Source of the DNA: Cladosporium halotolerans
Taxonomy: Eukaryota
Direction: 5' to 3'
Length of the DNA: 64,000 nucleotides
Assembly (NCBI RefSeq): GCF_011745625.1
Contig: NW_027191463.1
Coordinates: forward strand, 558,001-622,000
Notes under the pieces: generated by a model
Seen by the model: only the letters and a program-made list of their open reading frames with translations
Databases searched by the model: none
What the model was told of the DNA's origin: nothing
Shown: positions 8,527 to 32,474 of the stretch, in pieces
How positions within the stretch are numbered: position 1 is the first letter of the stretch
Layout of the letters: the number at the start of each line of letters is the position of its first letter
Program-made: the position numbers and the translations under genes

Positions 8527-9618
8527 TTAAGCCGTGGCTGCCTTCGACTCCCGACCAGTCACATCATCAACGGCATCCTCAAGAGACGGCTGCGGCTTCT
8601 CAGACTTCGGCATCCTGGCCTCATGAATAAGCTTGCTCAAGCAAGAGACCAAGCTCTCCTTCTCCTCCGGCTCCGCATTCGCACTGCCCGCCCAACGGAT
8701 GCGATTCTCCTCATCCACAAGGTACACATACCCCGTCACGTCGTTCAGCAACCCAATCGCCTCCTTCATGACATCCGACACGCCGCGGTACACCATGAAA
8801 TACCGCCCTTGCTCCTCGAGGCTCCGCGTCCGGCGCAGGTTGCCCTTGAACAGCTGCAGAATCCACCACTTCAGCCAGTTCTCCTCGCGGTTGATCTCCA
8901 CCACCTGCGCGCAGTCCTTCGCATCCGCCAGCACCTGGTGCAGCGCCGCGTTCTGCTTCGGCGACACGAACGTCGCCGTCTGGTTCACCGCCCACTGGCT
9001 GCTCACGATGCTCACGACCGACACCTTGCCCCTCGTCGCCTCGCACGAGTTGCGCCCGTACCCTCTGTATCCGTCTTTCGAGTCGACCCTCGCGGCGTCT
9101 TTGCGCAGCGTCTTGCCGAAGAAGTTCGGGAAGAACAGCGCGTGCTCCGCCCGGAACAGCCGCGGCGGCGCGACGAACTGCTTGCCCTTGTGGAAGCGCA
9201 GGTTGCTCCAGTCGCGGAAGTACGGCTTGGAGATCTGCTTCGTCATCCGGCTGCGCTTCTGCAAGTGTTTCTCGTAGTTGACGAAGTCGTCGCGGCGCTG
9301 GCGCAGGGAGCGCAGGTCGAGCCCCATGTTGTCGCCGGGGACCGGGGGGTAGGGCATTCCGATGGGCCGGCTGAGGGGTGTGGGTTGGAATTCGTCGCTG
9401 TCGTCGGGTTGCGCGCGCAGCTTGTAGCCGGGGAGGTCGGTGGGGACGGGTTTGTTGAAGGGAGCTGGGGGAGGGGGTTGTTTTTGCGTGGGTTTGGGGT
9501 CTTTTTGCGAGGGTTGCGAGGCGTAGGTTCGACGGTTTGTGAGGGTGCAGGAGGAGCGGGTTTCGGTTAGGGCGAGGAGGCGGAGGGCCTGGAGGCCCAG
9601 AGGTGAGGGCGCCTTCAT
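8527..9618 (-). CDS. ATP10: Mitochondrial ATP synthase assembly factor Atp10
   Basis: Presequence-like start MKAPSPLG; LSRPIGMPYPP, LFFPNFFGKTL, GYVYLVDEENRIRWAGS motifs. Confidence 0.9.
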   Translation of the reverse strand: MKAPSPLGLQALRLLALTETRSSCTLTNRRTYASQPSQKDPKPTQKQPPPPAPFNKPVPTDLPGYKLRAQPDDSDEFQPTPLSRPIGMPYPPVPGDNMGLDLRSLRQRRDDFVNYEKHLQKRSRMTKQISKPYFRDWSNLRFHKGKQFVAPPRLFRAEHALFFPNFFGKTLRKDAARVDSKDGYRGYGRNSCEATRGKVSVVSIVSSQWAVNQTATFVSPKQNAALHQVLADAKDCAQVVEINREENWLKWWILQLFKGNLRRTRSLEEQGRYFMVYRGVSDVMKEAIGLLNDVTGYVYLVDEENRIRWAGSANAEPEEKESLVSCLSKLIHEARMPKSEKPQPSLEDAVDDVTGRESKAATA

Positions 9619-10121
9619 TTTGGCGAAGCTGTTGGTTGGTGTGTTTGGGGGTATAGAGGTGGTAGTTGTTCGTAGCTGGAGCTCGAGATGCCGCGAACTT
9701 CCCGATCGGGACTTGGCTGTCCTGCAGCGCGGAGATCCACGCGGGAGTGCCACAAGGGACTTGGAACGCTCAAGGGTCAAGCCACGCGAGCCACGCTCGG
9801 CCACGACGTCGACCGATGACGGCCGCGTCGGCGGGCGAGAAGTCGATGGCAACGCGGTCAAAATCCCATGTCAGATCGCGGTGGGCTGCAGACGGCCGAT
9901 TCTTCCGATCCGATGACCCTGTCATTATCACTACATTCGCCGCTATCAGACTCTTGATCGGCCTTTAGTCAGGTACATGTAGACTTGGTTTGCTTTCTAA
10001 TCCTTCTGAACGTCCGTCTTTCGTACATCGAACCTCTTTCGTTTCTTTTGAACATAGACGCATAGCCGTCCTGTCAAGTATACCCCCATCGTCTCCTCGG
10101 ATTAAATAGATTTCAGCAGTC

Positions 10122-11170
10122 ATGGTTCTTATCGTAAGTCTTAGCCTGGTTTCTACGGCCAACACGTACGCCACCATACTAACCCTCCCCAGGCTGTAGG
10201 TCAAATCTGCTCGACAGCCTCCATGGAGGAGAACCTAGAACAATGTCGCGTCGTGATCAACAAGGCCGTCGCCGCTGGTGCAAAGGTACGCTACAACGCC
10301 ACCAACCCAAAACCACAGCACATTCTCACCAACCCCATCACCTCCAGGCCGTCTTCCTCCCCGAAGCAACCGACTACCTCGCCCACAACGCCACCGAATC
10401 CCTCTCCCTCTGCCAACCCACCAGCACCTCCCCCCTCGTCCTCGGCCTCCAATCCCTCGCCGCAACCCACTCCCTCCCCATCTCCGTCGGCGTCCACGAA
10501 CCCTCCTCCTCCTCCCCGGACAAGCTCAAAAACACCCTCCTCTGGATCTCCGAGCGCGGCGAAATCACAAACCGCTACCAGAAACTCCACCTCTTCGACA
10601 TCGCCCTCCCCAACGGCGGGCCCACGATGCGCGAGTCCGCCAGCGTCGAGCGCGGCGCCGCCCTGCCCGCCCCGTTCCCCACCCCAGCAGGCAAAGTCGG
10701 CCCGGCCATCTGCTTCGACCTGCGCTTCGCCGAGCTCGCGCTGCACCACAAGCGCCTGGGCGCGGAGATCCTGCTGTACCCGTCCGCGTTCCACCCGGAT
10801 ACGGGGCGCGTGCACTGGCTGCCGCTGCTGCAGGCGCGGGCGGTCGAGACGCTTTGTTATGTGGTTGCTGCGGCGCAGGTTGGGCGGCATAATGAGGTCA
10901 GGAGGAGTTATGGGCATAGTGTGGTTGTCAGTCCGTGGGGGGAGGTGTTGGCTGAGGCGGGCGGGGAGTGGAGGGGTGAGCCGGAGTGTTTGGTTGTGGA
11001 TGTCGATTTGGAGTATTTGGAGGGCAGGAGGAGGGGGTTGCCGCAGGAGAGGAGGACGTGAGTCTTTGTTTTTTTTTTGTTTTTTTTTTTTCCTTGATGT
11101 TTTATTCGGGTGTTTGGCGAGGATGGTTGGCTGACTTGATGATTGTAGGGATCTTTACCCGGAGGTCTAA
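10122..11170 (+). CDS. Carbon-nitrogen hydrolase (Nit1/Nit2-type, probable deaminated-glutathione amidase); 4 exons
   Basis: MVLI|AVGQICST start. Catalytic triad motifs FLPEA, YQKLHLFD and ICFDLRF; LLQARAVET, SYGHSVVVSPWG; last exon DLYPEV*. Confidence 0.9.
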
Positions 11171-11532
11171 ATTTTGGCCGTCCGATGACTTTCTTTTGAG
11201 TGGCACTTTCGTTCGCTCGAAAGGCGCTCAAAGATGAAACGCCGCCGGCTACATGGGGCCAGGAAACGTGCGAGCGAGGCCGTTCAATGGGAGGCCAGTG
11301 ATAAAACGATCATGCAAGAACGATTCGTACTCTGAAGAGGAGGCGCATCGCAAGAAATGTAGATTTTCCCTTAGACCCTTAGACCTAACAGGGAACCATC
11401 AATAAAAATAAACACGACCGTATAGATCACCCCATTTCGTTCCACTAAAGCCCTTCCACCTCCAATCTCACCTTAACCTCAGTCACCCTTAACCAACCCC
11501 CAAGCATCACGCACCCTTGATCCCTTCTCTCC

Positions 11533-12540
11533 TCACAATCTCGCCTTCGCATCCACCCTCCCACCACAAACCCTCTCAAAAACCCCCACCCCCTCACTCC
11601 CCAACGCGCTCCCAACCCCTACGACCCTTGCTCCAACCGCCCGCATCCTCTCCGCCCCCTGCAAGTCTCTCACCCCGCCCACACCAATGATCTCCACGCC
11701 CCGCAACCCCTCCTCAGCATCCAGCAGCCCTCGCAGAATCCGCACATTCCCCAGCGCCAGCGCGTGCAGCGGGCTGCCCGCCAACCCGCCCGTGCCGGCG
11801 CCGGAGGCGGAGGCCAGAGCTGGGGCGCCGGGAGAGGAGGAGGGCGTTGGGGAGAGCAGCAGGGCGGAGCCGAGGGTGTTTGTGGCTGTGAGGAAGTCGA
11901 CGCAGCAGCGCGGGGCTGTGGATTTGAGCGCGGAGACGAGGGTCGTGAATTGGTCGGCGTAGGTGTAGGGGGGGATTTTGAGGCCGAGGGGGACGGGGCT
12001 GTGCGCGCGCGAGGGGGCGAGGAGGGTCAGGTAGGAGAGGAGGGAGGGGAGGGAGTAGGCGGGTGGCGGGAGGGAGGGGATGTTGGGGCAGGAGAGGTTG
12101 AGTTCGGCTGCTAGGGGGGTGGTGGGGAGGAGGGCTTGCAGGGCGGTGATTTGTTGGTAGGCTGTGAGGATGTCTTTTGGGGGGCCGGTGATGGAGATTA
12201 TGAAGGGTTTGGTGGGGTTGTGGTGGGAGGTGGTTATGGTGCGGATGGCGGTGAGGTAGTAAGAAAGAGGGTGTGGGCTGTAGCCGAGGGTGTTGAGGGT
12301 TGCGGTTTGCATGGTGGGGGAGGCGGGTTGGTTGTTTGGTTGTGAGGGCGTGTGGGTGGTGGGGTCGAAGAAGGCGAATTGGTGGATGGATGGGTCGTGG
12401 TCGAAGCCGTCTAGGAGGCTTGTGCGGGTTGTCACGGCTCCAGTGAAGGGACTGTCGTAGAGGGTTTGGAGGTCGGAGAGGGTTGTTGCCCAGGGGTTGG
12501 CGGAGTTGATGACTGGTGGGTTGATTGGTGGGAGGGGCAT
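11533..12540 (-). CDS. Class-1 dihydroorotate-dehydrogenase-like FMN enzyme, probable peroxisomal dihydrouracil oxidase
   Basis: NSANPWAT, AVTTRT, LNTLGYS, ELNLSCPN, ATNTLG, GGLAG, IIGVGGV motifs; C-terminal ARL (PTS1). Confidence 0.8.
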   Translation of the reverse strand: MPLPPINPPVINSANPWATTLSDLQTLYDSPFTGAVTTRTSLLDGFDHDPSIHQFAFFDPTTHTPSQPNNQPASPTMQTATLNTLGYSPHPLSYYLTAIRTITTSHHNPTKPFIISITGPPKDILTAYQQITALQALLPTTPLAAELNLSCPNIPSLPPPAYSLPSLLSYLTLLAPSRAHSPVPLGLKIPPYTYADQFTTLVSALKSTAPRCCVDFLTATNTLGSALLLSPTPSSSPGAPALASASGAGTGGLAGSPLHALALGNVRILRGLLDAEEGLRGVEIIGVGGVRDLQGAERMRAVGARVVGVGSALGSEGVGVFERVCGGRVDAKARL

Positions 12541-23174: not shown

Positions 23175-26100
23175 ATGTCTTCACCACCTCCAGGCGGCCA
23201 GAGTCGCCGGCCCAGAGCGCCCACTATCACTATCGACACATCCGCCGTTGGGCGATCATCAGAGAACTTGGTACAGCCAGAGCAGGACCGCAGGCAAACC
23301 AGCGCCGAGGGATCATCTCCAATGCTACGACCGACCACCGGAAACTCAACACCCCCAGAGCTGCGCAAGAGCGGTAGCTTCGAAAGCCGAGAATCACGAC
23401 CGACCAGCCCACACAACATCTCCTCACCAACACAAGTCAGCCACCCTCAGAACTTCCTCGCGGTCCCCGTACAGCGGAAAAGAGGAGGCAGCGTCGACAC
23501 CGATGGAGGCGACACCGTTTCCACCACGGACACGACCTACGTCGGCACCGACCACCAGTCGCCGAAGGTCTTCGGCGCGGACGATGTGAAGCATGGAGCC
23601 GGCGACCACCCCGTACTGAGCGACAAGGAGGCGCTGAAGCCGGATCCTGGAACCGAGGCCGACTTTGAAAGAGAGAACAACCCGTTCGCGTTCGCGCCTG
23701 GACACATGACGAAGCTGCTGAATCCGAAGAGCTTGGGCGCATTTCATGCTATGGGTGGATTGACCGGACTCGAGAAGGGCTTGAGGTCGGATCGGAACAG
23801 TGGTCTCAGCGTGGACGAGGAAGAGCTGGACGGCCGCGTGACGTTCGAGGACGCCACTGCGGCCACGAGCCCAGCGGAGTCGGATAACACTAAGGTCGCG
23901 GCGCCGCCTAGGACAAACTCGCACGCGGGAGCCGGCACACAGCAGGGATCGTACCAGGATCGCAAGCGCATTTTCAACGATAACCGCTTGCCCGAACGCA
24001 AGGCGAAGAATATCTTCCAGCTTGCGTGGATGGCGTACAATGACAAGATTCTGATCTTGCTTACGGTTGCGGCGGCGATTGCGCTCGCTCTTGGTATCTA
24101 TCAAGCTGTCGGCCAGCCGCATCCTCCCGGAGAGCCCGGTGTCGAGTGGGTTGAGGGTGTCGCCATCATCGTCGCTATCGTCGTCGTTGTTTCGGTAGGC
24201 GCGCTCAATGACTGGCAGAAGGAACGGCAATTCGTCAAATTGAACAAGAAGAAGGACGCGAGAAACGTCCAGGTCATTCGCTCTGGAAAGGCTCAGGAAA
24301 TCAGCGTGCACGATCTTTTGGTTGGGGATCTCATGGTTATCGAGCCTGGTGACATCCTGCCGGTCGACGGCATTTACGTCACGGGCCACAGTGTCAAATG
24401 CGACGAATCGTCAGCGACCGGAGAATCCGATATTCTCAAGAAGGTCGGCGCAGACGAGGTTTACAGAGCGATGGAGAACAACGAGAATCTTAGGAAGATG
24501 GACCCGTTTATGATCTCCGGCGCCAAAGTCACCGAGGGTTTCGGCCGCATGATCGTCACGGCTACTGGTATTCATTCGTCCTACGGAAAAACCATGCTCG
24601 CCCTCCGCGAGGATAACGAGGCCACTCCACTGCAGATGAAGCTCAACAACCTCGCCGAGTACATCGCGAAGCTTGGTAGCGCTGCCGCTCTGCTCCTCTT
24701 CGTCGTGCTTCTCATCAAGTTCCTTGCGCAGCTGCCTGGGAACAACGACTCGCCTGCCGACAAGGGTCAGCGCTTCTTGGACATTCTTATCGTCGCTGTC
24801 ACTATCGTTGTTGTTGCCGTCCCCGAGGGTCTGCCGCTCGCGGTGACATTGGCTCTGGCTTTTGCCACGAAGCGAATGCTGAAGGACAACAACCTCGTTC
24901 GTGTGATGCGATCCTGTGAGACTATGGGCAATGCAACCTGTGTGTGTTCAGACAAGACTGGTACTCTTACGCAAAACGTCATGACGGTCGTGGCCGGCTC
25001 GATTGGGACTTCTAGTAGATTCAACAATCGCGCCGACACGCAGGTCGAGGCTGGAAAGGCTATTGACGAGCCCGAACAGGCACACGACGACGTCGATGAC
25101 GTGACTGCTCCCGAGTTCGTCAAGACTCTGTCGGAGGATACTGCCACCCTCTGGAAGGACGCGATCGCCATTAACTCGACTGCTTTCGAGGCCGAAGAGG
25201 AGGGCAAGATGGTCTACGTCGGCTCCAAGACGGAGACCGCCCTGCTCGGTTTTGCTCGTGACTTCCTCGGCATGGACAAGATCGCTATTGAGCGCAGCAA
25301 TGCCGAGATCGTGCAGCTGATTCCTTTTGATTCTGGACGCAAGTGCATGGGTGTCGTCGTCAAGCTTCCCACTGGTGGCTACCGCTTGCTCGTCAAGGGT
25401 GCCAGTGAGATCATGCTCAGGCACTGCAAGCACATCATCCGCGACCCGACCATGGGCAACGAGTCTACGCCGCTGTCTAGCCATAACAAGGAGATGCTCG
25501 AGCACCTCATCGACGCCTACGCCTCCAGGTCCCTCCGCACGATCGGCTTCATCCACCGCGATTTCGAGGCGTGGCCGCCTAAGGGAGCGCGCCGCGCCGA
25601 GGACGACCGGACCCAAGCCGTTTTCGAGGACGTCTGCAAGGACATGGTCTTCCTCGGGCTCGTCGGAATCCAGGACCCGCTGCGTCCCGGTGTCTCCGAG
25701 TCTGTCGCTGATTGTATCAAGGCCGGTGTCTTCCCTCGAATGGTCACGGGTGACAATATCAACACTGCGAAGGCTATTGCTAAGGAGTGCGGTATCTACA
25801 CTGCTGGTGGTCTTGCTCTCGAGGGTCCGGATTTCAGGAAGATGAGCAAGCATGAGCAGCGCGAGATCATCCCTAAGCTGCAGGTTCTCGCTCGTTCTTC
25901 TCCTGAGGATAAGCGAATTCTGGTTAGGCGTCTTAAGGAGATGGGAGAAACTGTTGCCGTCACTGGCGATGGTACCAACGATGCGCCTGCGCTTAAGGCC
26001 GCTGATGTTGGTTTCTCTATGAATATCGCCGGAACTGAAGTCGCCAAAGAGGCTTCTGATATTATTCTTATGGACGACAACTTCACGTCGATTGTCAAGG

Positions 26101-27479
26101 CGCTTATGTGGGGTCGCGCTGTCAACGATGCGGTCAGGAAGTTCTTGCAATTCCAGATCACGGTCAACATTACTGCCGTGTTGCTTGCGTTCATCACTGC
26201 CGTCGCTTCTGACCAGGAGGAGTCAGTTCTCACTGCCGTTCAACTGCTCTGGGTCAACCTGATCATGGATACCATGGCCGCCTTGGCTCTCGCGACTGAT
26301 CCACCGACTCGCAAGATCCTGGACCGCAAGCCTGATCCTAAGTCTGCACCGCTCATTTCTGTCACCATGTGGAAGATGATTCTCGGCCAAGCTATCTACC
26401 AGCTCGTTATCACTCTCGTTCTTAACTTTGCAGGCCCCAAGATCTTTCACTACGATGGCGAGGACGAGATGGAGCAGCTGCAGACCATGGTTTTCAACAC
26501 CTTCGTTTGGATGCAGATCTTCAACTCCCTCAACAACCGTCGTCTTGACAACAAGTTCAACATCTTCGAAGGCATCCAGCGTAACTGGTTCTTCGCGGGC
26601 ATCTTCCTCATCATGGTCGGCGGTCAAACCCTCATTATCTTCGTCGGTGGCCGCGCCTTCCAGGTCCGCAGGCAGTTCGGCGACCAGTGGGGCGTCGCCA
26701 TCGTCCTTGGCGCCATCTCCATTCCCATCGGTATCGTCATCCGCCTCATCCCCAACGAACTGGTCGTCAAGCTAGTCCCGCCCTTCATCAAGCGCTGGGT
26801 CAACAGGCCCAAGAAAGACGAGCTCATCGTCACCGACGAGGAGAACCCCTGGCAATTCAACCAAGGTCTCATGGACATCAAGGAGGAACTCGCCTGGCTC
26901 CGCAAATACAAGGGCGGCCGCCTGCGCTCCCTCCGCTTCGCCGTCTCCCACCCCAAGGAACTCCTCCTCGGCTCGCGCTCGCCCAGCCGCTCTCGCGCCT
27001 CCTCCGACGCCCCCGGTACACCCCACTTCGACGCTTCGCAAGAAGGCGACTCCGCCTCTCAACTCTCCCACTCCCCCGCCCCGCCCACCCCGGACTCCCG
27101 CCGCCGCCGCAACCGCTCCCGCTCCGGCTCAAACGTCGCTTTCGCCGGCGCCGCCATGGCCGGCATCGTCGCGGGCTCCATCGGCGGCTGGTCGCCCATC
27201 GAGCGCGGCCGCGGCGACAACGACAGCTTGCGCTTCGCTCGCGAGCGCTCGAAGAGCGATCTCAGTCGCGAGGTCAGGAGGTCTGCAGAGGTGCATCCGG
27301 AGACGCGCGAGGGCGATCCCGTCGTTGTTCGCGATCCGGTCGTGAGTGCTGCGGAGGAGGGCGCGATGCATCCGCCTAGTCAGGCGAATGAGACGACGCC
27401 GGCGTTTGGGCTGGGGCCGTTTGGGGATCAGCCGCCGTCGACGATGGGGGATGAGGGGAGGAAAGATGGGAAGGATTGA
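23175..27479 (+). CDS. PMC1: Vacuolar P2B-type Ca2+-ATPase, intronless
   Basis: DESSATGES, AVPEGLPLAVT, CSDKTGTLT, KGASE, TGDN, GDGTNDAPAL, QFQITVNITAV, WVNLIMDT. Confidence 0.96.
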   Translation: MSSPPPGGQSRRPRAPTITIDTSAVGRSSENLVQPEQDRRQTSAEGSSPMLRPTTGNSTPPELRKSGSFESRESRPTSPHNISSPTQVSHPQNFLAVPVQRKRGGSVDTDGGDTVSTTDTTYVGTDHQSPKVFGADDVKHGAGDHPVLSDKEALKPDPGTEADFERENNPFAFAPGHMTKLLNPKSLGAFHAMGGLTGLEKGLRSDRNSGLSVDEEELDGRVTFEDATAATSPAESDNTKVAAPPRTNSHAGAGTQQGSYQDRKRIFNDNRLPERKAKNIFQLAWMAYNDKILILLTVAAAIALALGIYQAVGQPHPPGEPGVEWVEGVAIIVAIVVVVSVGALNDWQKERQFVKLNKKKDARNVQVIRSGKAQEISVHDLLVGDLMVIEPGDILPVDGIYVTGHSVKCDESSATGESDILKKVGADEVYRAMENNENLRKMDPFMISGAKVTEGFGRMIVTATGIHSSYGKTMLALREDNEATPLQMKLNNLAEYIAKLGSAAALLLFVVLLIKFLAQLPGNNDSPADKGQRFLDILIVAVTIVVVAVPEGLPLAVTLALAFATKRMLKDNNLVRVMRSCETMGNATCVCSDKTGTLTQNVMTVVAGSIGTSSRFNNRADTQVEAGKAIDEPEQAHDDVDDVTAPEFVKTLSEDTATLWKDAIAINSTAFEAEEEGKMVYVGSKTETALLGFARDFLGMDKIAIERSNAEIVQLIPFDSGRKCMGVVVKLPTGGYRLLVKGASEIMLRHCKHIIRDPTMGNESTPLSSHNKEMLEHLIDAYASRSLRTIGFIHRDFEAWPPKGARRAEDDRTQAVFEDVCKDMVFLGLVGIQDPLRPGVSESVADCIKAGVFPRMVTGDNINTAKAIAKECGIYTAGGLALEGPDFRKMSKHEQREIIPKLQVLARSSPEDKRILVRRLKEMGETVAVTGDGTNDAPALKAADVGFSMNIAGTEVAKEASDIILMDDNFTSIVKALMWGRAVNDAVRKFLQFQITVNITAVLLAFITAVASDQEESVLTAVQLLWVNLIMDTMAALALATDPPTRKILDRKPDPKSAPLISVTMWKMILGQAIYQLVITLVLNFAGPKIFHYDGEDEMEQLQTMVFNTFVWMQIFNSLNNRRLDNKFNIFEGIQRNWFFAGIFLIMVGGQTLIIFVGGRAFQVRRQFGDQWGVAIVLGAISIPIGIVIRLIPNELVVKLVPPFIKRWVNRPKKDELIVTDEENPWQFNQGLMDIKEELAWLRKYKGGRLRSLRFAVSHPKELLLGSRSPSRSRASSDAPGTPHFDASQEGDSASQLSHSPAPPTPDSRRRRNRSRSGSNVAFAGAAMAGIVAGSIGGWSPIERGRGDNDSLRFARERSKSDLSREVRRSAEVHPETREGDPVVVRDPVVSAAEEGAMHPPSQANETTPAFGLGPFGDQPPSTMGDEGRKDGKD

Positions 27480-28086: not shown

Positions 28087-28190
28087 TCTCAGCCTTCTCG
28101 TTCAGCCTTCTCTCTCAGCCTTCTATTAAGCCTTCTCTCAAAACCTCTTCCCTCAGCCTTCTCCTTCAGCTCTCTCCTTCAGCAATCTCT
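28087..28190 (+). repeat. Degenerate ~12-nt pyrimidine-rich tandem repeat (TCAGCCTTCTC-like)
   Basis: About 8 imperfect copies (tcagccttctcg, tcagccttctct, tcagccttctat, taagccttctct, ... tcagccttctcc) just 5' of the NLR ATG. Confidence 0.7.
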
Positions 28191-28273
28191 CTTCGCAACG
28201 ACAACAAACGATCGCAGTACAAGCGCCAGCTGAGAATAATACTACGCCTCCAGATCTTTCGATTCGCGAAGCT

Positions 28274-31200
28274 ATGGCGAGTCGCGCCGGGAATATATAC
28301 TCGAACATCTACATCTCGGGCAGCAGCCGAGTCCATCAGGGCAACGTGTACAACCAACATAGCCCTTCGCCCGATGAGAAGGCTTTTGGCTCTGTTATCG
28401 AGAGCCTCAGCTATGATGGGATGAACGATCGCAGAGATCGTCTCAACAGTGCCGAGCGAGGGACCTTTGATTGGGCGCTTGCCGAAGGAGATGTTGAAGT
28501 TGTCGCTCACCGTGACATAGTTTTTGGTCGAGCATACACTCAGACCACAAAGATCGATGTGAGCTTCACTCAATGGCTGGAAGGGGAAGCCGAGGGACTC
28601 TTCTGCTTCATGGGAAAGCCGGGCTCAGGAAAGTCCACGCTCATGTATGTGCAATTCCAACCACATTGCGATGCATTCTGCGCTTACCCGATTGCATGAT
28701 GTAGGAAGTACATCGCAACCAACCCAAAGGTCGACCAAGCTTTGGACTCATGGGCGAAAGGCAAACCTCCGATCCGTGCCGAACACTTCTTCTGGATCTT
28801 GGGAGGCCCCGTGCAGAAAAGCCGCGAAGGTCTTCTGAGACATCTTCTCCACTCCGCTTTGCTTTCATTACCACCATGTGCAGACGGCGAAGACTTGGAG
28901 CTGGCAAAACGCATATGCGGGACACGACGACTGTCGAGTAACTTTCAGCGCGCATGGACATACGATGAGCTGTTTGAAATGCTTTCCCGACTTACTGCCC
29001 TCCCTGATGCCAAATTCTTCTTCCTCATCGATGCTTTGGATGAATGCGAACCGCAAGATCGATTAGGAGAGCTCGCTGATGAAGTGATAAGAATCTCGCA
29101 GCTGCCAGATGTCAAGCTGTGCGTCTCCTGCCGGCCCTGGAGTGTGTTCGAACAGAGATTTAACGAGGCTCAGGTGCTCCACCTGGACCGACTGACGTAC
29201 ACGGATATGGAAATTTACATTCGAGGTCGTCTGACTAGTATCGGAGGCGACCACGAGCTCTGTTCGGAGATTCGAACCTTTCCTACGACAAAGAGGGCAA
29301 CTGAGTTCGTCATCAAAATCGCGCGGGCTGCTAAGGGCGTCTTTCTTTGGGTAGAACTTGCAGTCAAGGCTCTCGCCAGCGAGCTGCGTAAGAATACATG
29401 TGACGACTTCAAAGAGCTCGAAAGAGTTCTCGATGAATTTCCAGTGGGGCTTGATGAGTATTTTCAAAATCTGATCTTCGACCGAATCACGAAGACCCGA
29501 CGGAACGTTTCGGATACAGCGGCCGCTCTCATGCTTGCTTTGAAAATTGTGGAATCTACTCACCGTGAGCATGTGGCCTACGGTCTGCCCAGCCCACATT
29601 CGTTCCTCAACTTCTGGCTATTGAGTCGTGGATATCTTGAGCCTGGTCTATCTTGGACCAATCTCGAGAACAAGTGGTACTCTCCTGAGGATGCCAGACG
29701 GATGGTAAGACAAACAACAAACTTCCTCGAAGAAACCTGTAAAGATCTGTTGGTGGTAGTCCCAAACAGCGAGTCAGAGATCAAATGGGACGTCGACTTC
29801 TTCCACCGCACTGTGGCTGACTTTCTATTCGATGATCGCGTCAAACTCATTCTGGAGCAACAATCGCCGGATCATTTCAGCTACGAGCTTTTCCTCATAG
29901 ACCTAGGGAAGTTGCGCTGCATGTGTCTTTTTCGTAATGTAAGCGAGAGCTGTGACATTGCAGAAGATTGTTTGGTAAAAATCGTCGATTGGTCAAAAAC
30001 TGTTTCACGGCGCGATAAAGACTGGCTTCTATCGTGCGAGGCGCTGATGATAGAACGTCACCGAAAGTGGTGCGATTGTTTGGTGCATCTCACGGAGCTT
30101 CTGGAGCGACGTCTCGACGACTGTGCTGCTCTTGGATTGACCAAATACTTGCGGGAAATCATAGACACATGGCCTCATTTGGCCCTTCAAGTGTCCCTGT
30201 ATGACCTTCTCAGTGGATACCTTGCGTTTGCTACCACAGTGCCGCATGTCGCATGCCACAGTCAACTTTCGCTTCACGGCTTGCGGACGATCTCCAGCGC
30301 AAAGACAGGTATGCTGTCAGGTCGAGGAAAATCGGTTGATTTACAGGGTTTCCTCACTGCGTCTTTCAACGATCCATTCGCCCCTAAATCCGATAATTGC
30401 CACACTAGACTCCTCACTCGTCTCCTCGACTCTGGAGCAAATCCAAACCAGCAAATCACTGAGCCCGACTCCAACCTTGACCTATTAGTAGGGATTTGTG
30501 AGGCCTCGATGTGGCAAGCCTGGTTGGGTGCTGTGTACCGGGAACTTGAGCAACATGAAGCAGCAGACGCATGCAAGCAACCGAATGGGTCTCGGAGGCT
30601 CACGAGGGACATCAAGCGGGTAGTCAGCGATGCCGTTATCGTCCTTCTACGACACGGGGCAGATCCTCTTTGCACAATATGCGTATCGAATCACTACAAG
30701 GTGCCGAAGTGCCAGCTGGTGTCTTTAGAGAGCATTCTTGACTTCATCACACCGTGCGATATTTTGGAACGCGTACAGAGTTTGCGAATAATGCAGGCGC
30801 TACGTTTGGACCACCACGCCCAGCATCGCGAGTTGATCCTGAGAGCTATGAGAGCTTGGAAAATAACAGAACGGGAAGTGTACAGGCGCGGAGAAGACCT
30901 GCACGATTTGCCTCGAACTGAACTTGACCAATTCATCATGCAAGTCTTCACGAACGCAAAACATAGGTTTTGCAGCGCATGCAAAGAACTAAGTTCGTGG
31001 AGGGATTTTGCGATGGCTGCATGTCTCGACTGTGCCGGGCATTACCATCTGTGCAACCAATGCATGATGAGTAGCTATCCTGATGGTCTGGATCACGAGG
31101 GATTGAGCACACAGGTTGTTCATGGGGACAATCTATCGGAAGGGCCCCATACATATGTTTGCTTCGAGGCTCATTTCCACCGAGGAATGTTCGGGAATCG

Positions 31201-31297
31201 TTTGCAACTGGTGTCACACGGCGAGAGGAGCGTCACATCAGTGATGGAAGACTGGTATGCCCGGAATACAAATGATGCAGATGCCGCGCTCGACTAG
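28274..31297 (+). CDS. Fungal NLR (NACHT) with N-terminal HET-s-like amyloid motif, ankyrin-like remnants and a C-terminal ZZ-like zinc finger; 2 exons
   Basis: Intron 28645-28704 joins the two ORFs in frame (STLM|KYIA). AERGTFDW, Walker A GKPGSGKST, Walker B FFLIDALDEC, VKLCVSCRPW, AKGVFLWV, FFHRTVADFL. Confidence 0.9.
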
Positions 31298-31811: not shown

Positions 31812-32474
31812 TTAACCCAATCTTCTGGGCCTCGGGCTCCTGGTACCACCAATCTTGAGCCTCGTCGCATCGACGACTGCAGTGATCTTCTTCCTGATAA
31901 TCCTGCCCTCCGCGCCTAGCAGCGCCTTCGTCACCGCCTCCCTGCCCGCGCCGAACCCCCGAATCACCACCTCCAGGCCCTGGATGTCCCGCAGCATACC
32001 CTTCTCTTTCATCGTCTTGAGCGTGAACGCCGTCAGCTGGTATGCGGCGTCGTAGCTGCCGCGGCCCGCTTTGCGGAACCCAATGTTGCCCGCGGACAAG
32101 GACAGCAGCACGTCGACCATCTTCTTCTGCTCGGCGGCGCTGGCGTTGATGGAAGAGATGCCGGACGAGGGCGTTTGTGCGGCGGATTTGGGCGGTTGCA
32201 CGAGGGTCAGGTGCGTGTTGTGCTTCGTTGTCAGGACGTGCAGACGGTGCGATTTCTGATCCAGCCTGGCGTCAAGGTTCTCGCTCGCTCGGTCGTTGTA
32301 CAGTAATGACGTGGGGCTGTTAAGGATGTCTGTGATCTGGTTCAGGCTTCCGTCTTCGGCTTTCCTGCCGACTGATGTGCTGAAAGGACGCTGGAAGGTG
32401 GAGGGTTTGAGGCGTAGGCGGCATGATTGGCAGACGGAGGAGGCGAAGGAGCGCAGTGCGAATGTGGACGCCAT
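31812..32474 (-). CDS. MRPS18: Mitochondrial ribosomal protein uS11m
   Basis: Presequence; HNTHLTL, SAGNIGFRKAGRGSYDAAYQL, RGFGAGREA, DATRLKIGGTRSPRPRRLG. Confidence 0.92.
   Translation of the reverse strand: MASTFALRSFASSVCQSCRLRLKPSTFQRPFSTSVGRKAEDGSLNQITDILNSPTSLLYNDRASENLDARLDQKSHRLHVLTTKHNTHLTLVQPPKSAAQTPSSGISSINASAAEQKKMVDVLLSLSAGNIGFRKAGRGSYDAAYQLTAFTLKTMKEKGMLRDIQGLEVVIRGFGAGREAVTKALLGAEGRIIRKKITAVVDATRLKIGGTRSPRPRRLG

Follow-up and report, generated by a model that had tools for sequence, protein, structure and literature searches.

The described system closest to the gene considered here is the NWD2/HET-S pair of Podospora anserina, in which the nucleotide-binding oligomerization domain-like receptor (NLR) NWD2 has no effector domain of its own and carries one HET-s repeat at its N terminus (PMC3321046, PMC4344463). 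The same receptor-side organization, with the same spacing of key residues in the repeat, is found in an NLR gene at 28274..31297 on the forward strand of a 64,000-nucleotide stretch of Cladosporium halotolerans DNA (contig NW_027191463.1, positions 558,001 to 622,000), hereafter called the window. By analogy with NWD2, it is moderately likely that this gene encodes an intact NWD2-type fungal NLR whose residues 5-29 constitute a receptor-side (r0) HET-s-related amyloid motif (HRAM), acting by amyloid templating; in both systems, the proposed action would be templating upon oligomerization. Unlike NWD2, which has WD repeats and adjoins het-S, the window NLR ends in a helical repeat-like region with a cysteine/histidine module and has no partner in the 64 kb, and a further difference is the glutamine at position 18 of its motif.

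NLRs that bear an HRAM and have an unlinked partner, or none, have been published before (PMC9815663, PMC4518210). An adjacent NLR is reported for only 98 of 155 HeLo-type proteins (Daskalov 2015, PMC4518210), and Wojciechowski 2022 (PMC9815663) includes a section on receptor/effector pairs that are not adjacent. Among the classes described there, NLR12 bears an HRAM3-like variant of the motif and has single-repeat PNP_UDP partners that are rarely co-localised with it, receptor and effector copies standing at 5.7 to 1. The family of the window NLR shares with it a histidine at position 3 of the consensus (PMC4518210; PMC9815663), the window copy itself having N3, but NLR12 is mostly found in Sordariomycetes and its partners are the single-repeat PNP_UDP proteins just mentioned (PMC9815663). 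Another class, NLR40 (Table 1 and S1 Table of PMC9815663), comprises 24 HRAM-bearing NLRs with 0 neighbour and 0 effector matches. Its motif at residues 6-31, its nucleotide-binding and oligomerization domain (NOD) from about residues 93-107, and its presence in Eurotiomycetes and Dothideomycetes fit the window NLR, a likeness of layout only, whereas its listed members are of the NACHT-ANK or NACHT-WD type. Six hexamers taken from the motif had no match in the 9 supplementary files of the same paper, out of 11, that were searched. A literature search on amyloid-signalling NLRs in Cladosporium returned, judged by titles and abstracts, nothing on fungal NLRs.

An earlier reading of this DNA, made from its letters without database searches (the sequence-only reading), had proposed an amyloid-signalling receptor acting in trans on an unlinked effector. 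This interpretation is partly supported. Its presentation of action on an unlinked effector as unusual was overstated in the light of the HeLo-type proteins, NLR12 and NLR40, and the partner does not have to be a HeLo protein with two repeats, as it had assumed, given the single-repeat PNP_UDP partners of NLR12 (PMC4518210, PMC9815663). Since unlinked receptor/effector pairs have already been published, the value of the present case is incremental; what is gained is a defined profile and a candidate family of two-repeat partners.

The HET-s-type motif and its conservation

The motif occupies residues 5-29 of the NLR (28286..28360, forward strand), with a core at residues 7-26 that corresponds to 28292..28351, exactly where the sequence-only reading had placed it. 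Its likeness to HET-s was judged by the residue rules printed in the papers, and not by the HET-s repeats which that reading had quoted. The consensus of the 21-residue HET-s repeat has asparagine at positions 1 and 18, glycine at positions 10 and 17, and a positive charge at position 13 (Daskalov 2012), a spacing that is matched exactly by N7, G16, R19, G23, and N24 of the window protein. Similarly, S18, R19, G23, N24, and Y26 stand at the places of S273, R274, G278, N279, and Y281, the HET-s residues singled out by Daskalov 2014. As the spacing of the key residues is equal, the gapless alignment to the HET-s repeats put forward earlier is valid.

The rules given for HRAMs include a perfectly conserved glycine at position 19, hydrophobic residues at positions 5, 8, 10, 16, and 18, arginine or lysine at position 15, and asparagine, glutamine, or histidine at position 3 (PMC4518210). 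Numbered in this way, the window motif has N3, Y5, I8, I10, G12, R15, V16, Q18, G19, and N20. The glycine of position 19 is G23, the hydrophobic positions are held by Y9, I12, I14, and V20, and positions 15 and 3 by R19 and N7, respectively, while position 18 is Q22. Glutamine at position 18 is a mark of HRAM4 and histidine at position 3 a mark of HRAM3 (PMC4518210); with N3 and Q18 the window copy is ambiguous as to sub-family, and the consensus of its family is HRAM3-like. When 48 instances of the motif from 40 proteins were aligned to the family profile, most of these preferences were found throughout: glycine at position 19 (47/48), tyrosine or phenylalanine at position 5 (45/45), glycine or aspartate at position 12 (46/48), a hydrophobic residue at position 18 (45/48), and arginine or lysine at position 15 (41/48). 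Position 8 is isoleucine or valine in 33 of the 48, position 10 isoleucine, alanine, or valine in 31, and position 16 hydrophobic in 35, and position 3 is histidine in 30 and asparagine in 5 of 43.

Composition and placement also agree with the receptor side of such systems. Motifs of the r0 kind are described as poor in aspartate, glutamate, and lysine and rich in serine and histidine (Daskalov 2015, PMC4518210); the window motif contains none of the former, and serine and histidine make up 26% of it. Most NLR-borne HRAMs begin at positions 5-9 (PMC9815663), and the single copy on this effector-less NLR begins at residues 5-7. PF17108 HET-S, a 23-position model, is the only Pfam model that matches the motif-bearing N termini, doing so in 3 of 12 with a best E-value of 3e-4; for the exon-1 piece of the window protein its score is 15.2 bits, and for the first 45 residues 17.4 bits (E-value 0.004).

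Conservation of the motif was followed in relatives found with exon 2 of the gene. At E <= 0.001 this search returned 311 relatives, and the best 120 of them were examined; among the matches listed, the named ones come from Cladosporium fusiforme and Cladosporium sp. NU13 and are 30-49% identical to the exon 2 query, and the best unnamed one is 88% identical. Most relatives are open reading frame (ORF) calls that begin after the intron, and their N termini are hence missing. In the close family (P0001-P0098), 13 proteins keep residues before the P-loop, 11 of them with the whole motif and the other 2 starting within it, and the motif-bearing close homologues range in overall identity from 19 to 59%. 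The core pattern of the motif was not found in the remaining 107 of the best 120. Because all 13 homologues with an N terminus carry the motif or its tail, the motif is more than a chance resemblance. A family profile of 27 positions, built from 12 N termini (the window protein and 11 homologues), scores 48.1 bits at the start of the NLR, the next best score over the six frames of the window being 3.5 bits. In the 12-row alignment behind it, Y9 and H21 never vary, and at least 90% of the rows keep G6 and G23.

Gene model and receptor architecture

The NLR gene consists of two exons on the forward strand (28274..28644 and 28705..31297), whose spliced product has 987 amino acids and a single, terminal stop. 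The ATG at 28274, which opens the frame as had been stated, is the first in this frame after a TAA at 28127, and its methionine has its counterpart at the start of the homologues. It starts an ORF at 28274..28699, whose frame is linked to a 772-codon ORF ending at 31297 by removal of a 60-nt intron (28645..28704, GTATGT...TAG) read from the sequence. Exon 1 encodes residues 1-123 and two bases of codon 124, and exon 2 encodes, as judged from Pfam and homologues, the remainder of the NACHT/NPHP3_N domain, the DUF7791 domain, and the C-terminal region, stop codon included.

Support for the intron and for an untranslated leader comes from an 874-nt contig of the public run X17, which is taken as an RNA run on a tool's guess. 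The contig aligns to 28093..28645 and 28711..29024, omitting the intron, with four letters between the two parts. Because the same relatives have T instead of G at 28708 and lack one nucleotide at 28710, we infer that this joint represents the exact removal of 28645..28704. In a close relative, the motif is thus encoded within what looks like a spliced transcript. The 5' leader extends at least over 28093..28273, where the contig begins, and contains no ATG in any frame. Contigs of two other runs, X8 and X16, retain the intron, and no RNA dataset is listed as containing the stretch.

The encoded protein has the layout of an NLR, with the short N-terminal motif followed by a NACHT/NPHP3_N nucleoside triphosphatase, DUF7791, a helical C-terminal region, and a cysteine/histidine module. 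Pfam identifies NPHP3_N at 36.3 bits (cut-off 24.8) from residue 96 and DUF7791 at 31.0 bits, and the NACHT model itself scores 26.0 bits, slightly under its cut-off of 26.7. The Walker A P-loop (residues 114-121, 28613..28636) was found with the regular expression G.{4}GK[ST], and a Walker B region (residues 229-237, 29018..29044) by pattern match on the spliced protein. The motif had been described as directly preceding the NACHT region; it does lie N-terminal to it, but motif and P-loop are separated by a Ser/Pro linker of about 16 residues and an N-terminal extension of the NOD module of about 70 residues which is kept in homologues (together 28361..28612). Within the 123 residues of exon 1, Pfam finds no effector domain, only the sub-threshold PF17108 match and the start of NPHP3_N, in agreement with the claim that one HET-s-type repeat is the sole N-terminal element.

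The C-terminal 431 residues (30002..31294) have no Pfam match at E <= 10, and in particular no WD, ANK, or TPR repeat. An AlphaFold2 model of this region, based on 42 aligned homologues, reached a pLDDT (predicted local distance difference test) of 84.1 and a pTM (predicted template modelling score) of 0.84, and consists of a helical part followed by a small beta module. Foldseek returned nothing for this model at E <= 0.001, and VIA-align placed HEAT, TOG, and ankyrin-type repeats on its residues 3-269 with Z of 7-10, no better than for any helical repeat; since such values are expected of any helical repeat, the modelled region is called repeat-like and given no finer class. Four cysteines of the C-terminal region (C227, C237, C341, and C344) are invariant, and further cysteine and histidine residues are kept in at least 90% of homologues, so that the module probably binds zinc and would be of a kind not usually listed among NLR sensor domains.

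Partners, mode of action, and competing explanations

If the window NLR signals as proposed, a partner with cognate repeats should exist in the genome. The window holds no second copy of the motif, the family profile staying at or below 3.5 bits elsewhere in the six frames, and no known effector domain, and a Pfam scan of 91 stop-to-stop frames that reach 150 amino acids or more recovered housekeeping genes only. The statement that no partner is encoded next door holds for the whole 64 kb, that is, for 28 kb upstream and 33 kb downstream of the NLR, so that the partner, if it exists, is unlinked. A co-localised receptor/effector pair is defined by ±20 kb in PMC9815663, and the window spans more than this distance around the NLR.

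One hint at the nature of the partner comes from NLRs of the same NACHT/DUF7791 clade (P0105, P0107, P0109, P0116, and L001) with a fused SesA-like or HeLo-like N terminus. They share the NOD of the window NLR at 28-36% identity but, unlike it, have an effector domain in cis and no amyloid motif. Weak matches to SesA were seen in 4 and to PF17111 in 1 of 8 distant NACHT/DUF7791 relatives scanned. Fused and split architectures are known to coexist among signal-transducing ATPases with numerous domains (STAND proteins) (Daskalov 2012), and the fused relatives hint that the partner may be a SesA-like or HeLo-like protein. The metagenome scan gave 2 loci only, L001 and L002 (the latter at an E-value of 1e-3). 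On the L001 contig, a distant NLR at 9138-11911 has a SesA-like N terminus of 25.6 bits (cut-off 26.3); an intron or a change of frame apparently lies between it and the NACHT part.

The search for partners rests on the 12-row profile, which, out of 1.84 billion proteins, matched 33 at E <= 0.001; Pfam was run on 18 of the 30 that were new. By our reading, 13 of the matches are N termini of the same NLR family, 3 of them being query rows. In 5 proteins of other NACHT clades (P0130, P0139, P0143, P0145, and P0149) the motif lies behind a leader of 50-75 residues, and in 6 non-NLR proteins (P0128, P0132, P0134, P0135, P0140, and P0150) it is present in two or three copies, a modular distribution that favours a signalling motif of the HRAM kind. 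Six short or non-NACHT proteins, including P0141, carry one copy, and 1 match (P0122) is a tandem-repeat artefact. P0141, a 526-residue protein from C. fusiforme, has its single copy at the N terminus and no NACHT domain, and otherwise shows only a faint ankyrin match (E-value 0.094). The last 2 matches, P0129 and P0146, are small, secreted-looking proteins that are probably unrelated; each has two stretches matching the profile, and one is named Cyanovirin-N domain-containing protein. That name, their signal-peptide-like starts, and their conserved cysteines led to their rejection as partners, and their repeat is probably a convergent beta-rich one. PF11558 is weakly matched by P0129, P0135, and P0140, all with two motif stretches.

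The most informative of these matches is P0134, a predicted protein of 105 residues from C. fusiforme. Its two copies are C-terminal, at residues 44-68 and 74-94, and are followed by a phenylalanine-tryptophan pair three residues before the C terminus, as HET-s ends with residues 283-289 holding the essential F286 and W287 (Daskalov 2014). C. fusiforme has both P0134 and NLRs homologous to the window NLR, and the locus tag of P0134 (Q7P37_003282) does not adjoin the tags of the four proteins examined from that species. A single-sequence AlphaFold2 model of P0134 was uninformative (pLDDT 53, almost no secondary structure), and a complex prediction with two window N termini and residues 40-105 of P0134 gave a score of 0.01 and a mark of 0.34, which are evidence neither of binding nor of its absence. 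Longer proteins were also sought by a word-indexed search with the motif region, which returned one candidate and no scored match, and a protein atlas search gave no usable match. Candidates for the partner are thus far a protein resembling P0134, or a SesA-like or HeLo-like protein.

A different kind of candidate is P0150, a metagenomic protein of 153 residues in which the motif occurs three times, with a stretch behind it resembling the glycine-rich loop and conserved lysine of a protein kinase; there is no Pfam match. A kinase with amyloid-type repeats would recall the kinases of animals that carry a RIP homotypic interaction motif (RHIM), and a partner of this type, if true, would be an echo of the RHIM kinases of animal necroptosis. 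On a broader and distinctly speculative view, which we regard as improbable, many NLRs and some non-NLR proteins of a Cladosporium-centred network would signal via this HRAM variant to kinds of partner new to amyloid signalling, with P0134, a minimal protein comprising little beyond a prion-forming domain, and P0150 as candidate members.

The mechanism envisaged for the window NLR follows the NWD2/HET-S analogy. A ligand would be bound by the C-terminal region, leading to oligomerization of the NACHT domain. This would gather several r0 motifs, which could stack into a beta-solenoid-like amyloid nucleus. The nucleus would in turn template the same fold in a separate protein with cognate repeats, switching on the activity of that protein. 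That the motif forms amyloid and templates another protein, and what kind of protein this would be, are inferred only.

Several observations weigh against this mode of action. The scan with HET-s profiles that had been suggested did give matches to PF17108, but 17.4 bits for the window protein fall short of the gathering score of 24.3, the matches of these models to the motif in other proteins are likewise sub-threshold, and PF11558 HET-s_218-289 does not match the window protein. Neither the profile nor the 40-residue N terminus matches any PDB sequence, HET-s included, at E <= 10. The coupling published for HRAMs, in which G12 goes with isoleucine or leucine at position 8 and D12 with V8 (PMC4518210), is absent, I8 being accompanied by 11 G and 11 D and V8 by 5 G and 4 D. 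Position 18 is glutamine in the window copy versus leucine or methionine in the family, and, since a profile of this very family was used to collect the 48 instances, they are no independent sample. On the partner side, no known effector domain (HeLo, SesA, PNP_UDP, or patatin) was found on the profile matches within the Pfam-scanned set, the N-terminal part of P0134 consists of 43 low-complexity residues with no killing domain, and a search with its residues 40-105 for a relative among longer proteins gave eight candidates, none of which was scored, and no such relative.

The alternative that survives best is that the N-terminal peptide is not an amyloid but a short linear motif, serving for instance to bind a regulator, to bind metal via the invariant histidine, or as a degron, its likeness to HET-s being convergent. 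This is considered unlikely. The sub-threshold Pfam scores and the lack of a PDB match would fit it, as would the occurrence of the motif at the N terminus of the non-NACHT protein P0141 and in the secreted cysteine-rich P0129 and P0146, where amyloid signalling is unlikely. It leaves unexplained, however, that every residue rule defining an HRAM is found in the peptide, including the arch residues G12 and G19 and R15, and that the motif forms tandem pairs, one of them with a HET-s-like F-W tail, which a simple docking peptide does not account for.

Less probable again, and rather doubtful, is the proposal that the motif is a genuine HRAM on an orphan receptor with no cognate partner in the genome, which would then be a relic of birth-and-death evolution or signal by its own aggregation. 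The lack of a partner in the 64 kb, the precedent of NLR40 with its 24 partnerless members (PMC9815663), and the frameshift at 28708/28710 in relatives from the runs X8, X16, X17, and X18, which brings a stop at residue 168 and indicates that the locus decays in some strains, argue in its favour. Yet the window copy is intact across its 987 codons, the motif is kept in homologues down to 19-25% identity, pointing to selection, and C. fusiforme combines a two-repeat protein with NLRs of the same family. That translation starts at the in-frame Met50, or that the motif is a chance resemblance in the 5' leader, is hardly credible, and a start there, for which the presence of that methionine is all that speaks, is ruled out because the peptide is conserved at the amino-acid level and homologues share the start position, ATG 28274 being moreover the first ATG of the leader in the spliced contig.

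Under the amyloid-templating reading favoured here, a Dothideomycete NLR family with NACHT, DUF7791, helical repeats, and a cysteine/histidine module joins the receptors that appear to signal in this way. In this family, the motif goes undetected by the Pfam models now available.

Surroundings of the gene and variation among relatives

The window offers a concrete case of a receptor placed among housekeeping genes and far from any partner. The flanking genes had been named as PMC1 and uS11m, and this was borne out. The upstream neighbour (23175..27479, forward strand) encodes a PMC1-like P-type Ca-ATPase with the Pfam domains Cation_ATPase_C, E1-E2_ATPase, Cation_ATPase, and Hydrolase, and the downstream neighbour (31812..32474, reverse strand) a Ribosomal_S11 protein (PF00411, 27.3 bits); neither is part of the system. 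The gaps between them and the NLR, estimated earlier at 0.8 and 0.5 kb, measure 794 nt upstream and 514 nt downstream and are free of effectors. Other housekeeping genes of the window include those for a short-chain dehydrogenase, the Grn1 GTPase, a SNARE, ATP10, a nitrilase-type hydrolase, dihydroorotate dehydrogenase, and Tim44, and there are also genes for a ceramidase, a fungal transcription factor, a nucleoside hydrolase, an acyl-CoA dehydrogenase, an old yellow enzyme, and an acyl-CoA ligase, among others.

Contigs from the four runs X8, X16, X17, and X18, which belong to three studies and are 95-99% alike, share the G>T change at 28708 and the 1-nt deletion at 28710. Imposed on the window gene model, the two changes shift the frame, and translation would end at residue 168 of the 987. 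Beyond 30460, moreover, the X16 contig diverges from the window. These differences suggest that the NLR locus is polymorphic or in decay in close relatives, a usual state for NLR genes.

The leader is variable as well. Positions 28087-28190 form a degenerate tandem repeat with a unit of about 10 nt, resembling CAGCCTTCTC, and its copy number varies, since the contig of a relative shows small insertions and a 38-nt step back in this repeat.

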